Position numbers and translations under genes: made by a program
Source of the DNA: Escherichia coli O157 typing phage 14
Sequence record: KP869112
DNA: 64,000 bases
Direction: 5' to 3' (one strand)
Shown here: positions 9,776 to 16,691 of the stretch, in pieces
Layout of the letters: the number at the start of each line of letters is the position of its first letter
Position numbering within the stretch: the stretch's first letter is position 1
The notes under the pieces: generated by a model
Database searches by the model: none
Told to the model about the DNA's origin: nothing
The model's input: the letters and a program-made list of their open reading frames with translations, nothing else

Positions 9776-9852
9776 TGGTCTCCACGGAGTGATTCGAACA
9801 CTCGACCTCCTGATCCCAAATCAGGCGCTCTACCAAGCTGAGCTACGCGGAG
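9776..9852 (-). tRNA. tRNA-Pro (anticodon UGG)
   Basis: Hand-folded cloverleaf: 7-bp acceptor stem, T-loop TTCGAAT, anticodon loop UUUGGGA, encoded CCA. Confidence 0.75.
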
Positions 9853-9863
9853 TATTTATTATT

Positions 9864-9938
9864 TGGTGGCCCTGGGTGGAATTGAACCACCGTCTGGCGA
9901 TTATGAGTCGCTTGCTTGAACCTTCCAGCTACAGGGCC
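9864..9938 (-). tRNA. tRNA with CAU anticodon (Met or Ile2)
   Basis: Acceptor GGCCCTG/CAGGGCC, T-arm GGTGG-TTCAATT-CCACC, anticodon arm GCGACUCAUAAUCGC, encoded CCA. The anticodon arm resembles the E. coli ileX type as I recall it, so Ile2 is possible. Confidence 0.7.
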
Positions 9939-9939
9939 A

Positions 9940-10015
9940 TGGTGCTGATGGCAGGACTTGAACCTGCAACCTATTGATTACAAATCAATTGCACTACCAA
10001 TTGTGCTACATCAGC
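9940..10015 (-). tRNA. tRNA-Thr (anticodon UGU)
   Basis: Acceptor GCTGATG/CATCAGC, D-stem GCAC/GTGC, anticodon stem ATTGA/TCAAT with loop UUUGUAA, T-loop TTCAAGT, CCA. Confidence 0.75.
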
Positions 10016-10022
10016 AAAAAGG

Positions 10023-10119
10023 TGCTAGGTGATGGAATCGAACCACCTATGTATTCAACGACTACCTCGTCTATTTTCAGGATTAAAAATCCTCGCCCTT
10101 GCCAAAGGGCTTACCTAGC
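10023..10119 (-). tRNA. atypical tRNA-like gene (Lys-like UUU anticodon loop, 29-nt variable region)
   Basis: Perfect 7-bp acceptor GCTAGGT/ACCTAGC, D-arm GCCC-TTTGGCAA-GGGC, T-arm GGTGG-TTCGATT-CCATC; anticodon arm GAGGA-UUUUUAA-UCCUG (G-G mismatch at 27-43). About 29 nt sit between anticodon and T stems, including an ACGA/TCGT hairpin. No complete encoded CCA. Confidence 0.5.
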
Positions 10120-10216
10120 TCAGTATGTTGACCATGTTGCTAGTCGGCGATGACGACTGTAACATTTGATAATCCGGTTCTGCTTCCGGCTTTCGCTTAA
10201 TTACAAGGTCAACAAT

Positions 10217-10308
10217 ATGGCCGAGGGTAATGGAATCGAACCATCATCAAGTCATCCTCAACGGGACGGTTTTCAAGACCGCTTGAGCACCATTGCTCCC
10301 TACCCTCA
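10217..10308 (-). tRNA. tRNA-Ser (anticodon UGA)
   Basis: Class II tRNA, 92 nt: acceptor TGAGGGT/ACCCTCG, anticodon stem GCGGT/ACCGT with loop CUUGAAA, long variable arm, T-loop TTCGATT, CCA. Confidence 0.7.
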
Positions 10309-10422
10309 TTTATAAACAATACTGATAATGACACTGATTTTCGAGCAGTTAGTGACTAGTATAAACGACGATAAATATCAATGCCATTATCTGTATGATT
10401 TATGCATTTAAAACTATAAATT

Positions 10423-10509
10423 TGGTGGGGAGTGGTGGAGTCGAACCACCCGAGTCGCAATGACAATAGATTTACAGTCTACACCGCTACCTCTACGGGA
10501 TAACTCCCC
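10423..10509 (-). tRNA. tRNA-Tyr (anticodon GUA)
   Basis: Acceptor GGGGAGT/ACTCCCC, anticodon stem GTAGA/TCTAT with loop CUGUAAA, long variable arm (class II, bacterial Tyr type), T-arm GGTGG-TTCGACT-CCACC, CCA. Confidence 0.7.
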
Positions 10510-10513
10510 AATT

Positions 10514-10588
10514 TGGCACCCCGTACTGGACTCGAACCAGTGTCAACGGCTTAGAAGGCCGCTGCTTTATCCACTAAGCTAACAGGGC
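10514..10588 (-). tRNA. tRNA-Arg (anticodon UCU)
   Basis: Acceptor GCCCTGT/ACGGGGT (two G.U pairs), D-stem GCTT/AAGC, anticodon stem GCGGC/GCCGT with loop CUUCUAA, T-arm ACTGG-TTCGAGT-CCAGT, CCA. Confidence 0.7.
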
Positions 10589-10684
10589 ACTGGGTGGCTT
10601 TCTTTTACACCTTAGCCGCCAGAAAAGGTGGGAGACCATGTTTACAATATTACACTGTTAAGCAAAGTTTGTCAAGAAAATATT

Positions 10685-13565: not shown

Positions 13566-14120
13566 TTACTCCCCGCTGTCAATAGCAAAACTCATTGCAA
13601 TACGGTATGCCTCTTCTAATGGTAAGAGTCTCCCCCACACATCCCAACCGACATCAAGCTGCCTGCCAAACAACTGTTGTGTGGTTCCGTGAGCATGACC
13701 GAACAGTTGGACTGATCCGTGAGGCTTTCTGTTCCACTTTGCAAATTGGTAATGGCTCATACAGATCAAATTCTTGTTGTGGCGAAGCTCGTAATAATCT
13801 ACAACCTCGTGATAGAACTCTTTCATAATTCTGACAGTCGTCCTTGTGTCATGGTTGCCACGAACAAGAATAATATGTCCGTTCAACATATTTAGAATAT
13901 CTGGAAGTAATTTGTTGATATTCTTATCATTAGTGCACGCAATATCTCCCAAGTGGAACACAGTGTCTGCAGGTGACACAACAGAGTTCCACTCGGCGAT
14001 GATTCCCGCATTCATACTGTCAAGATTGTGATCATACTGAGATCTGTGTTTTTGACATGAATCAAACTCCATGACCCGCTGGTGGAGAAAGTGTGTGTCG
14101 CTTGTTACAAAGTATTTCAT
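13566..14120 (-). CDS. calcineurin-like metallophosphoesterase (candidate RNA-end healing phosphatase)
   Basis: Motifs SDTHF, HLGDIA, GNHD and FGHAHG in the order typical of binuclear metallophosphoesterases; start at ATG 14120, just after the kinase stop. Confidence 0.65.
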   Translation of the reverse strand: MKYFVTSDTHFLHQRVMEFDSCQKHRSQYDHNLDSMNAGIIAEWNSVVSPADTVFHLGDIACTNDKNINKLLPDILNMLNGHIILVRGNHDTRTTVRIMKEFYHEVVDYYELRHNKNLICMSHYQFAKWNRKPHGSVQLFGHAHGTTQQLFGRQLDVGWDVWGRLLPLEEAYRIAMSFAIDSGE

Positions 14121-14127
14121 ACATTCC

Positions 14128-14538
14128 TCATTTAAGTTTAATGCAGTTTTTAAGCTGGCGTTCCATACGATCCACAACCTTGTCTGGAACATCATGAATG
14201 CTTTTATTACCGTGGCGGTTTTCAACCACGATCACGGTATAACTATACCCATGACTGATTGCCATGTCAACATATTCCTGCACATGTTTTTCTTTTGTAA
14301 ACGTATTACTTACCACGATACGGTCGTATCCCATACGCATCATATCTTCTACGTTATCTTTGCACCATTTTGCTGCGAGTGTTACTTTACTTGCATCCCA
14401 GTTGTAATTGCCGTCATCGTCATACCAGAACATGTCGTTCTCAAAATGTGGATACAGACCTTCTAAAGATAGCGCATTTGCCAGTGTTGATTTGCCAGAC
14501 CCTGGCAGACCACGCACGATATATAGCATTTTAGACAT
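14128..14538 (-). CDS. pnk: polynucleotide 5'-kinase (T4 Pnk kinase-domain-like)
   Basis: P-loop GLPGSGKST, then acidic NDMFWYDDDG, IVVSNTF and IHDVPDKVVDRM, matching the layout of the T4 polynucleotide kinase domain as I recall it. Confidence 0.65.
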   Translation of the reverse strand: MSKMLYIVRGLPGSGKSTLANALSLEGLYPHFENDMFWYDDDGNYNWDASKVTLAAKWCKDNVEDMMRMGYDRIVVSNTFTKEKHVQEYVDMAISHGYSYTVIVVENRHGNKSIHDVPDKVVDRMERQLKNCIKLK

Positions 14539-14638
14539 AGCAATCCTCCGTTTTAATTTTAATGATAGTATACCTAACTGTTTTGTTAATTTCAAGTGTT
14601 GACACTAGGTTATTTGTGTGGCAGGATAGACTGACAAA

Positions 14639-15574
14639 ATGACAAATGAGGAACGTATGATGAAGTATTTTAATGCAGATGACCTAGTAGACAAAGGTCT
14701 TGTAACCAGTCGGTATTATCCAGATCTTGGATTAAAGATCTATAAATATGCCAGAAAAGTATTCTACAACAATCTGTGGCATTTGTCTCCGCGTTTACTG
14801 GAGTGCCGAGGTATTGTTGTTGGCAATGAGGGGAATGTTGTGGCATGGCCTTTCACAAAAGTATTCAACTTAGGAGAAAACTCCACCAACCTACCGGACA
14901 GTAAACTTGTTACTGCGGTAGAGAAAAAGAACGGATTCCTCGGTGTGGTATCATCTCATAAAGGTGAACTATTGTTCTCAACAACCGGGTCTCTTGATTC
15001 TCCATATTGTAACCTTGCAAAGGAAACCATCCAAGAGCAATGTGGTAATTTAGATCTTATCAAGAAGGTTATGGGCAATGAAAACATGACATTCATGTTT
15101 GAAATTTGTCACCCTTCAGATCCGCATATTGTTCAAGAAGACCATGGCGCATATTTGATAGGTTGCAGATATAATGATTCTGGAATAATGCTACCAGAAG
15201 CAGCTTTAGATGGGATTGCCAAATACCTTGGTGCAAAACGTCCTCACACTGTGCGTGAAATCCCGTTCAGCTATGCAAAAGAATTAGCTGCAGAAACAAG
15301 GGGCGAAGGGTATATGATCCGTAAGCCTTACTACCCTTATGACCTGCAGCTGAAGATCAAGTCTCCATACTATTTGGCACGGAAGGCCGTAATGAGAGGT
15401 AAAGCATGGAAGATTTGGGATGACGATATTTTTAAACGTGTTGACGAGGAGTTTTACGGTATGGTAAAATTTATTCGTAGCAACTATACAGAAGATGTGT
15501 GGAATTGCTTATTAGAGCAGGAGCGTCGCGAGATACTGGACTGCTATTTCCACAACGAGGACTATATGCAATGA
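14639..15574 (+). CDS. rnlA: RNA ligase, T4 Rnl1 family
   Basis: LLECRGIVV, KVFNLGEN and the motif I lysine in VEKKNGFLGVV (KxNG) match the T4 RNA ligase 1 N-terminal region as recalled (ALECRGIMF, KFFNLNEN, TKEDGSL); also EGYMIR and KIKSP motifs. Confidence 0.8.
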   Translation: MTNEERMMKYFNADDLVDKGLVTSRYYPDLGLKIYKYARKVFYNNLWHLSPRLLECRGIVVGNEGNVVAWPFTKVFNLGENSTNLPDSKLVTAVEKKNGFLGVVSSHKGELLFSTTGSLDSPYCNLAKETIQEQCGNLDLIKKVMGNENMTFMFEICHPSDPHIVQEDHGAYLIGCRYNDSGIMLPEAALDGIAKYLGAKRPHTVREIPFSYAKELAAETRGEGYMIRKPYYPYDLQLKIKSPYYLARKAVMRGKAWKIWDDDIFKRVDEEFYGMVKFIRSNYTEDVWNCLLEQERREILDCYFHNEDYMQ

Positions 15575-15929: not shown

Positions 15930-16691
15930 ATGCGACGACTTATTGTTATTTCTGGTGCTGGTTTGAGCGCAGAATCTGGTATTCCCACCTTCCGATCTGG
16001 TAGCACTGCAATGTGGGAGAATTTCAGCATCGATGAGGTGTGCAACATCCACACCTTTGCCAAGAACTACTATAAGGTGCATGACTTTTACAATGCACGT
16101 CGTGTAGCGCTGGGCAGTGTTGATCCTAACCTTGCACATCTTCGGATCGCTGAGTGGTATTCCCGCTGGTCTGGTCGTGTGATCAACCTTACCACCAATG
16201 TAGATGATTTGCTGGAGCGTGCTGGTGTAAAACATGAAGATATTTTACATGTCCACGGGTATTTGCCTGAAATCACCTACGAAGATGCTGAAGGTAATGA
16301 TGTAATTAAAAATATCGGATACACGGAGGTAGATACAGGCAAGTATACCTGGGTTAAGCCCAATGTAGTGTTCTTCGGCGAGGTTGCTCCTAAGTATACA
16401 GACATGTATGACCTGTTGACATCTCTCACCAGCAATGATATGGTGATCCTAGTGGGTTGTTCTAACACAGTTATTAATTTTAACTGGGAATTGTTTCCTG
16501 CTACTTGTAAAGGAACAAAACTGCTGATTGTAAACAAGTATGATTCGCAGAGTGCAGATGGAAGTGGCATTTCACGTAGCGACCTTTATCAATATGAGGA
16601 TCGCGGGATCCCTGTATGGTTTAACGGTGCTGTTGACGCTTTCTCTGATAAAGCATTTATTGAAACTGTAGAAAACTTTATGGAACTTTAA
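15930..16691 (+). CDS. Sir2-family (sirtuin-like) NAD-dependent protein
   Basis: Canonical sirtuin motifs GAGLSAESGIPTFR, TTNVDDL, HVHG and VVFFGE, but no Cys4 zinc ribbon between the HG and FGE motifs. Confidence 0.75.
   Translation: MRRLIVISGAGLSAESGIPTFRSGSTAMWENFSIDEVCNIHTFAKNYYKVHDFYNARRVALGSVDPNLAHLRIAEWYSRWSGRVINLTTNVDDLLERAGVKHEDILHVHGYLPEITYEDAEGNDVIKNIGYTEVDTGKYTWVKPNVVFFGEVAPKYTDMYDLLTSLTSNDMVILVGCSNTVINFNWELFPATCKGTKLLIVNKYDSQSADGSGISRSDLYQYEDRGIPVWFNGAVDAFSDKAFIETVENFMEL

Follow-up and report, generated by a model that had tools for sequence, protein, structure and literature searches.

A tRNA-shaped RNA with an expanded variable region in the tRNA operon of Escherichia coli O157 typing phage 14 and related phages

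The stretch of DNA analysed here, 64,000 nucleotides (nt) from Escherichia coli O157 typing phage 14 (sequence record KP869112; the window), contains on its minus strand a tRNA operon of seven genes, six of them tRNAs and the seventh a 97-nt tRNA-like RNA, hereafter the odd RNA. The genes, as found by ARAGORN and Rfam, follow one another in the order Arg(UCU), Tyr, a spacer, Ser(UGA), a second spacer, the odd RNA, Thr(UGU), Met/Ile(CAU) and Pro(UGG). Over a stretch of about 1 kb around the odd RNA, phage MaxTheCat (Bas57) is 99.9% identical to the window, and rV5, FV3 and about 100 other Vequintavirus genomes are 98–99% identical. The operon, the odd RNA and its parts are located as follows:

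9776-10588, minus strand: tRNA operon with the odd RNA (ARAGORN and Rfam)
10023-10119, minus strand: tRNA-like RNA, 97 nt, with its 5' end at 10119 and the discriminator A at 10023 (ARAGORN; Rfam tRNA model, 35.5 bits; family model R1, 102.5 bits)
10113-10119, minus strand: 5' strand of the acceptor stem, GCUAGGU, pairing with ACCUAGC at 10024-10030 in 7/7 pairs
10095-10112, minus strand: linker A8-A9 and D arm GCCC-UUUGGCAA-GGGC, with a covarying D stem
10078-10094, minus strand: short anticodon arm G-AGGA-UUUUUAA-UCCU-G, with UUU at 10085-10087 and bracketing Gs at 10094 and 10078
10072-10077, minus strand: 5' linker AAAAUA, with A2-A4 (alignment columns 45-47) invariant and A1 (column 44) nearly so
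10057-10071, minus strand: insert hairpin GACGA-GGUAG-UCGUU, free in sequence and length across the family and always predicted as a hairpin
10048-10056, minus strand: 3' linker GAAUACAUA, whose AAUACAUA part is invariant in 34/34 distinct sequences
10031-10047, minus strand: T arm GGUGG-UUCGAUU-CCAUC (Rfam alignment and family covariation)
10022-10021, minus strand: two extra encoded C, directly 3' of the discriminator

Read 5'-3', the RNA is GCUAGGU / AA / GCCC-UUUGGCAA-GGGC / G / AGGA-UUUUUAA-UCCU / G / AAAAUA-GACGA GGUAG UCGUU-GAAUACAUA / GGUGG-UUCGAUU-CCAUC / ACCUAGC / A / CC. The stems are perfect, with 7 bp in the acceptor stem, 4 bp (extendable to 6) in the D stem and 5 bp, including one G-U, in the T stem, and the minimum free energy fold is this same cloverleaf (-34.2 kcal/mol, z = -3.66, none of 200 shuffles being as stable). 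The T loop, UUCGAUU, fits UUCRANY, and the 5-bp T stem and G19:C56 contact of canonical tRNA are both present. The anticodon loop, UUUUUAA, places the UUU anticodon in the canonical frame of 7 nt, between U33 and a purine at position 37 (U32 U33 UUU A37 A38), and a G/G mismatch is found at 27-43. The anticodon and T stems are separated by 30 nt, a hairpin of 15 nt between linkers of 6 nt on its 5' and 9 nt on its 3' side, instead of the 4-5 nt, or the class II hairpin on 1-2 nt, of a canonical variable region. The discriminator A73 is followed by CC and then by U, so a complete CCA is not encoded. A sequence-only reading of the locus had described near-perfect acceptor, D and T arms that could not be random, a UUU anticodon arm with a mismatch at 27-43, and an incomplete CCA. 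All three descriptions hold on the minus strand, the first being reinforced by a covariation far beyond chance in the family described below. The variable region of about 29 nt that it gave was rightly called long, the exact count being 30.

ARAGORN reports a tRNA at 10119-10021 (minus strand) with the anticodon undetermined, '(atcc)'. The Rfam tRNA model (RF00005) matches 10119-10023 with 35.5 bits, against a gathering score of 29, and in its alignment the variable region takes up a 26-nt insert, the anticodon stem lacks position 27 of its 5' strand, and G43 has no partner. Apart from this marginal match, Rfam holds no family for the odd RNA, and literature searches found no description of it. 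The labels given to the locus in GenBank are tRNA-Lys (BASEL phages, tRNAscan-SE calls), tRNA-OTHER, tRNA-Pseudo, tRNA-???(atcc) and tRNA-TERM; the original rV5 record and many others carry no annotation of it. Short 'hypothetical protein' coding sequences are annotated directly over the odd RNA in several records (Proteus phage Mydo, locus L022, 326-527; SSE121, L025, 185-268; and loci L030 and L031), and these are probably annotation artefacts.

Homologues came from blastn with three divergent queries, from scans for exact patterns in viral and metagenomic contigs, and from annotated loci that were retrieved. The collection holds 34 distinct sequences, the window RNA and 33 others, from five Vequintavirinae genera, one N4-like phage and metagenomes:

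Vequintavirus: genus with family members
Avunavirus: Av-05 and TH18
Seunavirus: PVP-SE1, SSE121, GAP31, 4MG and others
Mydovirus: KB57, Mydo, Ro1, DP and AV124
Henunavirus: Hena1 and pEp_SNUABM_01
Schitoviridae (N4-like): Salmonella phage vB_SenP_UTK0002, a copy in its own tRNA cluster (L033, 5356-5460)
Metagenomic contigs: eleven of 75-152 kb, and others that are shorter and of unchecked origin

R1, a covariance model made from the family alignment, scores the members at 98-114 bits (102.5 for the window RNA) and ordinary tRNAs at no more than 28.7 bits, the best of these being tRNA-Ser(UGA) with 28.7, tRNA-Tyr with 24.1 and class I tRNA-Lys with 23.6 bits. The model thus parts the family cleanly from ordinary tRNAs, and it found one copy in each genome searched. 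In Rfam, the members from other genera fall below every threshold, and those outside Vequintavirus match the tRNA-Sec model alone, sub-threshold. The UTK0002 copy is 87.6% identical to the copy of an Erwinia Henunavirus, which implies horizontal transfer between unrelated phage families; no protein gene transferred together with the RNA was seen in the N4-like phage. No member turned up when 185,579 bacterial and archaeal genomes were scanned for the exact pattern, blastn with a 110-nt query gave no match in T4-like phages, and a scan of viral contigs with the D-arm pattern returned four chance matches only (L017-L020), at places without a tRNA. In Escherichia phage V18 (NC_041937; L005, 650-747), tRNA-Ser and the 5' half of the odd RNA are deleted, and what is left of the odd RNA, its 3' part from GUCGUUGAAUACAUAGG on, is fused to the 5' half of tRNA-Tyr. 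The odd RNA is a discrete and so far undescribed phage family with a conserved architecture of its own.

This architecture is common to every member: a 7-bp acceptor stem, an AA/AG linker, a 4-bp D stem with an 8-nt loop, a G, an anticodon arm of 4 bp around a 7-8 nt loop, a second G, AAAA(N), a hairpin, (N)AAUACAUA, the T arm, the 3' strand of the acceptor stem and the discriminator. In the alignment of the 34 sequences, 97.9% of the cells at paired positions are standard pairs (82.8% after shuffling), and all 15 unpaired cells are due to the rows with 8-nt loops, which are offset in the alignment. Compensatory changes are found in 12 of the 21 pairs, spread over all four stems, with a covariation score of 0.432 against 0.162 for shuffled alignments (0/500 shuffles reach 0.432) and at most 0.099 for slid controls; RNAalifold independently recovers the same cloverleaf. 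All seven acceptor pairs vary, five on both sides and two on one side, and none is ever broken, while the D stem occurs as GCCC/GGGC, GACC/GGUC and GCGG/CCGC. The tertiary pair G19:C56 is exchanged for U19:A56 (25 G:C and 9 U:A, never broken), and this D-loop/T-loop covariation is strong evidence for a tRNA-like elbow.

Regarding the core, A8 and U14 are invariant (34/34), swapping the canonical U8/A14 reverse-Hoogsteen pair, as are the G on either side of the anticodon arm, the second to fourth A of the AAAA linker, and AAUACAUA. The linkers flanking the insert hairpin measure 6-8 nt on the 5' side and 9 nt on the 3' side. The hairpin itself is predicted in the inserts of all 34 members, its stem changing from A-U to G-C pairs in Av-05 and TH18, and is of two types, one with a 5-7 bp stem and a small loop, the other with a 3-4 bp stem that closes a 14-nt loop with a conserved GAACUAACAGUAC. 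Column entropy is 0.92 bits in the anticodon loop, 0.21 in the T loop and 0.12 in the 3' linker. Within near-identical pairs of members, the 3' linker, both the D and T loops and the bracketing Gs never change. The changes that occur lie in the hairpin and the anticodon loop, at linker position 9, at one acceptor position that tolerates wobble, in the D stem and the T stem at one base each (with pairing kept), at one 5'-linker position and in the Avunavirus discriminator. The 5'-linker change occurs in a single pair, pEp_SNUABM_01/Hena1, at the variable sixth position. Judged from these comparisons, the odd RNA is a real, selected tRNA-shaped gene.

That the odd RNA might be a decaying tRNA pseudogene with an insertion, as the sequence-only reading had allowed, or a class II tRNA (Leu, Ser or Tyr) misread in register, is suggested by several GenBank records that mark it as pseudo, as OTHER or not at all, by the failure of ARAGORN to assign an anticodon and by its loss in V18. 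The comparative data refute this explanation, which we regard as very improbable. Because the stems covary and the insert flanks are conserved across genera, the odd RNA is not a pseudogene: compensatory changes affect all four stems and the tertiary pair, the flanks of the supposed insertion, the most conserved hallmark of the family, are invariant in five or more genera, and the gene has moved horizontally to an unrelated phage family. No tool and no manual parse yields a class II register, and G73 (Ser) and G34/U35 (Tyr) are missing. A normal class II tRNA read in another register, the outcome that the sequence-only reading had named as fatal to its own proposal, did not emerge, since neither ARAGORN nor Rfam gives one and the tRNAscan-SE labels in GenBank say tRNA-Lys.

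Other registers and known RNA types were tried and rejected. The four-base anticodon 'atcc' of ARAGORN needs an all-A-U stem, AUUUU/AAAAU, that is impossible in every other family member, and no stem results from a UAA (Leu) or UUA (ochre) register. Where 'tRNA-TERM' is given, it reflects the UCA loop of Henunavirus or, for SophiaRose, the call of a different tool. A tRNA-Sec or allo-tRNA is contradicted by an acceptor/T arrangement of 7/5 rather than 8/5, 8/4 or 9/3, and a tmRNA-like molecule by the lack of G3-U70 and of an ARAGORN tmRNA call. A hammerhead ribozyme, a k-turn or a loop E in the linkers does not fit at the core residues and has no Rfam match even at E <= 1, and a promoter within the conserved linkers was dismissed for a putative -35 that is not conserved between genera.

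The anticodon arm departs from that of decoding tRNAs. The canonical N26 followed by a 5-bp anticodon stem is replaced in 34/34 members by G / 4 bp / 7-8 nt loop / 4 bp / G. The stretch from the D stem to the AAAA linker measures 17-18 nt, compared with 18 in a decoding tRNA (N26 plus 17), and with 17 nt, the members with 7-nt loops, Vequintavirus included, have either an arm one layer short or a loop that is too small. The loops are distributed as follows:

Vequintavirus: UUUUUAA
Avunavirus: UUUAUAA
Seunavirus and Mydovirus: CCAUCCAG, CCAGCCAG, CCCUCCAG, CCUUCCAG, CCCUCAAG
Henunavirus, N4-like phage and uncultured contigs: CAUCAAA, UAUCAAA

The triplet is UUU in Vequintavirus only and UAU in Avunavirus; elsewhere it is UCC, GCC or UCA. 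U33 is present in Vequintavirus and Avunavirus alone, most other genera having 8-nt loops, or A33 or C33. In variability, the anticodon loop is second only to the insert hairpin: it differs within the near-identical pairs L034/L040 and L042/L055, and two of the three differences between KE22 and NINP13076 fall in it. A fast loop beside fixed linkers is the reverse of the pattern of orthologous decoding tRNAs. Canonical isoacceptors are also found next to the odd RNA, PVP-SE1 carrying a tRNA-Gly(UCC) in the same cluster and one uncultured relative both a tRNA-Lys(UUU) and a tRNA-Gly(UCC).

Tabulated bacterial identity sets comprise A73, U34, U35 and U36 for Lys; G73, G2-C71 and C11-G24 for Ser; A73, G34 and U35 for Tyr; and A73 with the class II core for Leu (PMC9976931 Table 1). 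The window RNA has the full Lys set. The Seunavirus and Mydovirus members have U73, G1-C72, C2-G71, C35 and C36 with UCC or GCC, which is the Gly set minus G3-C70; an origin of the family from tRNA-Gly, for which U73, G1-C72, C2-G71 and the UCC/GCC triplets could speak, is an idea only. CCA is encoded in most other genera, including these two. The discriminator is A in Vequintavirus only, U or C in Avunavirus and U in all other members. These combinations, which go back to few independent events, suggest RNAs meant for recognition, and perhaps for charging, according to the loop.

The odd RNA is not to be filed under tRNA-Lys, class II tRNA or tRNA-Sec, as it lacks defining features of each. 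Its orthologues keep neither the anticodon nor the discriminator of a tRNA-Lys. With A73, C2-G71 and UUU, it shares only A73 and the hairpin with a class II tRNA-Leu, and its core is atypical (A8/U14). As regards tRNA-Sec (RF01852), the 7/5 arrangement differs from the 8/5 of its 13-bp acceptor/T domain, scores are 23-38 bits against a threshold of 47, and its anticodon UCA occurs only in Henunavirus-type members, the window RNA having UUU.

A set of RNA repair genes lies 3.5-5 kb from the operon, annotated alike in MaxTheCat:

13566-14225, minus strand: metallophosphoesterase (Pfam PF00149)
14128-14595, minus strand: P-loop polynucleotide-kinase-like protein (Pfam PF13671)
14639-15574, plus strand: Rnl1-type RNA ligase (Pfam PF09511)

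A Sir2-family protein (PF02146, 6.9e-28) at 15930-16691 adjoins the set. T4 uses a healing and sealing set of this kind against the tRNA-Lys anticodon nuclease PrrC, and coliphages with tRNA-Lys(ttt) also carry rnl ligases (PMC10264068). Phage tRNA variants neutralise tRNA-cleaving defences (PMC11464382, PMC10264068), and the swap of a single anticodon-stem pair suffices for resistance to PARIS (PMC11464382). With a ligase, a kinase and a phosphoesterase near the operon, a conflict with anticodon nucleases is a relevant context, as the sequence-only reading had proposed. The Rnl1 ligase occurs in 768 phage records, spread over many unrelated groups without the odd RNA. Since it is so much more widespread, there is no specific link between the two, and a functional coupling of the odd RNA to the ligase was rejected for want of specific co-distribution.

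An unusual but working tRNA-Lys(UUU), which would be charged by lysyl-tRNA synthetase (LysRS), decode AAA and AAG, supply a Lys-rich proteome and escape AriB or PrrC through its divergent stem and body, is the main rival explanation, which we find possible though rather unlikely; it corresponds to the cleavage-resistant replacement considered by the sequence-only reading, and in Vequintavirus the odd RNA would have become, or would still be, such a tRNA. It agrees with the canonical 7-nt loop with U33, UUU and A37, with the A73 that completes the Lys set, with the tRNA-Lys labels based on tRNAscan-SE and with a score above the Rfam tRNA gathering threshold. The ORFs of the window contain 75 Lys codons per 1000, and the cluster has no other tRNA-Lys. 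The anticodon stem AGGA/UCCU differs from the host GUUGA/UCAAU (UUGA/UCAA in the pairs compared; host sequence in PMC11464382) in three of four pairs, the loop-closing A31-U39 being common to both, and one swap is enough for PARIS resistance (PMC11464382). The odd RNA of this phage hence has the trait of evading phage tRNAs, a UUU isoacceptor with an anticodon stem-loop unlike that of the host, and an rnl ligase accompanies it, as it does tRNA-Lys(ttt) in coliphages (PMC10264068). Against such a tRNA stand the short anticodon arm, the A8/U14 in place of U8/A14, and a loop that is the second most variable region of the family; the orthologues of sister genera have UAU, UCC, GCC or UCA, often without U33 and beside canonical isoacceptors. 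We know of no tRNA-Lys with a 30-nt variable region and single-stranded linkers of 6 and 9 nt. LysRS is a class II synthetase and approaches its tRNA from the side of the variable loop, where, to judge from established structures, the insert may clash with it. Of the phage tRNA-Lys proposed by the sequence-only reading, the UUU frame, A73 and the tRNAscan-SE-based labels are retained; a Lys-like loop confined to Vequintavirus, the variability of that loop, the short arm and the coexisting canonical isoacceptors weaken the proposal.

Our preferred reading, with a probability of roughly 45%, is that the odd RNA would be a tRNA mimic that could be charged but does not decode, and that serves where phage and host contend over defences directed at tRNAs. 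Its start in other genera lies 2 nt past the CCA of the tRNA before it, from which it can be inferred to be part of a polycistronic tRNA precursor. The mimic would be cut from this precursor by RNase P and trimmed at its 3' end, like its neighbours, and in this phage its CCA would be added by the host enzyme. As it has UUU and A73, it is probably chargeable by LysRS here. Its main job would not be routine decoding, from which the conserved short arm, the loops without U33, the loop changes in near-identical pairs and the coexisting canonical isoacceptors point away; it would act instead as a decoy, as a poorly cleavable competitor or as a ligand for a tRNA-binding factor, against defences such as PrrC, PARIS or ApeA-type nucleases. 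The fast-changing anticodon loop would be the part retargeted between phage lineages, and the invariant linkers would form a special core or a binding site. The odd RNA has been kept in Vequintavirus although the tRNA set is down to six.

Several observations weigh against a non-decoding mimic. Lys codons are frequent in the window ORFs (AAA 44.3 and AAG 30.5 per 1000 codons), with no other tRNA-Lys found by ARAGORN in the tRNA cluster of the phage, and the UUU frame together with A73 looks like a coordinated identity switch, which fits a tRNA-Lys that is used. The type of loop tracks the phage lineage and not the host genus, and a simple matching of host defences predicts otherwise. Since nucleases act catalytically, a decoy would have difficulty in titrating one. 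V18, which has no intact odd RNA and can be seen as a natural knockout, is still viable. Finally, an 8-nt anticodon loop decodes in at least one natural tRNA, the yeast mitochondrial tRNA-Thr (PMC7609411).

A more speculative explanation, to which we assign a low probability, regards the odd RNA as a portable tRNA 'chassis', whose invariant core (A8/U14, the G..G bracket, AAAA and AAUACAUA) would be unusable or uncuttable by the tRNA-targeting enzymes of the host, and whose triplet and discriminator would be re-programmed by lineage (Gly-type UCC/GCC with U73, Lys-type UUU with A73, UAU, UCA). If true, the family would be a new class of RNA with which phages counter defences or reprogram translation, the loop deciding how it is charged. 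In a radical variant, the linkers may be sites of cleavage and ligation, the hairpin being excised and the halves rejoined by the phage kinase, phosphoesterase and Rnl1 ligase.

Aminoacyl-tRNAs have well-established uses other than translation, and an aminoacylated tRNA-like carrier or regulator outside translation and defence would be another, similarly improbable, explanation. Such an RNA could be an amino-acid donor for a transferase, a titrator of RNase P, of the CCA enzyme, of EF-Tu or of RelA, or a small-RNA precursor cut in its A-rich linkers. It would accord with a CCA encoded in most genera, with the near-complete Gly set (without G3-C70) of the Seunavirus and Mydovirus members and with the invariant single-stranded AAUACAUA, which suggests sequence-specific recognition. 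The amino acid implied varies by genus, however (Gly, Lys or none obvious), against a single role as a chemical donor; the N4-like phage has no co-transferred protein gene, and the Rnl1 ligase is far more widespread than the odd RNA. Sites complementary to the invariant linker are also not enriched in the window, and an antisense regulator of phage mRNAs was rejected on the same count, for the complement of AAUACAUA(G).

One of the closest known counterparts of the odd RNA is the tRNA-Lys of T5, likewise an RNA from a phage tRNA cluster with UUU and a stem unlike the host tRNA-Lys, in a coliphage that faces tRNA-Lys-cleaving immunity; it is not cleaved by AriB and rescues infection restricted by PARIS (AriA/AriB) (PMC11464382). 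The odd RNA, known here from its sequence, differs by the short arm, A8/U14 and the 30-nt insert, and by orthologues that drop the Lys anticodon. The T5 molecule is otherwise an ordinary class I tRNA. With class II tRNAs and tRNA-Sec, the odd RNA shares a hairpin between the anticodon and T arms, and, like tRNA-Sec, it can have a D arm of 6 bp around a loop of 4 nt. Class II arms, however, join the core by 1-2 unpaired nt, whereas here the invariant linkers have 6-8 and 9 nt, and the 7/5 acceptor/T arrangement, the lack of G73 (Ser, Sec) and of G34/U35 (Tyr), and the short anticodon arm set the odd RNA further apart from both groups.

The T4 tRNA cluster encodes two small stable RNAs, C and D (species 1 and 2), which are longer than the odd RNA; as small RNAs among phage tRNA genes, presumably processed by the tRNA machinery, they resemble it. 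Natural tRNAs with unusual anticodon loops or roles outside translation, namely the yeast mitochondrial tRNA-Thr(UAG) with its 8-nt loop (PMC7609411) and the non-proteinogenic tRNA-Gly of Staphylococcus, can be compared with the Seunavirus and Mydovirus members, whose 8-nt loop has its additional base on the 5' side of the triplet and which also show Gly-type acceptor features and altered D-loop and T-loop bases. These two are cellular or organellar tRNAs of normal size and demonstrated function, unlike the odd RNA, and have no insert on invariant linkers.

The rV5-like, PVP-SE1-like and related phages, which all carry the odd RNA, belong to the coliphages that are most often isolated and most used in therapy and as models, BASEL members included. 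Annotation of their genomes should treat it neither as a suppressor tRNA nor as an ordinary tRNA-Lys. Among possible RNA-based answers to immunity that targets tRNAs, it is a concrete candidate defined by its sequence; only ordinary-looking phage tRNAs have been tested in this field so far. As a natural tRNA core rebuilt around an expanded variable region, swapped bases at 8 and 14 and a short anticodon arm, it is also useful for the study of tRNA structure and for tRNA engineering.

The operon is preceded by one further feature:

10647-10675, minus strand: sigma-70-like promoter, TTGACA-17-TAATAT, upstream of tRNA-Arg

This is likely the operon promoter. The 'P(tRNA)' annotated in rV5 also lies just upstream of the mature tRNA-Arg, and its match with 10675-10647 is judged from position, without alignment. 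Both spacers of the operon are predicted to be structured. The 114-nt spacer between tRNA-Tyr and tRNA-Ser (10309-10422, minus strand) forms a long near-perfect hairpin (-26.4 kcal/mol, z = -4.2, 0/200 shuffles as stable) and could be another small structured RNA or a processing element of the operon. The 98-nt spacer between tRNA-Ser and the odd RNA (10120-10217, minus strand) folds into an 8-bp closing stem with three hairpins in a cloverleaf-like arrangement (z = -2.6), and may be a decayed tRNA remnant; it is not present in the other genera, in which the odd RNA directly follows a tRNA.

Another tRNA that ARAGORN calls but cannot assign, 'tRNA-?(Ala|Cys)(ggca)', lies in the PVP-SE1 cluster (L014, 5994-6079, minus strand); it has 86 nt and a long variable region and is unrelated to the odd-RNA family. 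About 18 GenBank records, MG0656xx, are named 'Campylobacter phage' with C. jejuni as the host and are 98.6-100% identical to E. coli rV5-like phages in the region, so that these host labels look doubtful. The tRNA with a CAU anticodon at 9864-9938 (minus strand) is a tRNA-Met according to ARAGORN and the rV5 record, and a tRNA-Ile reading AUA according to the MaxTheCat record; it may be a lysidine-type tRNA-Ile2, which would fit the 9.7 AUA per 1000 codons in the phage.

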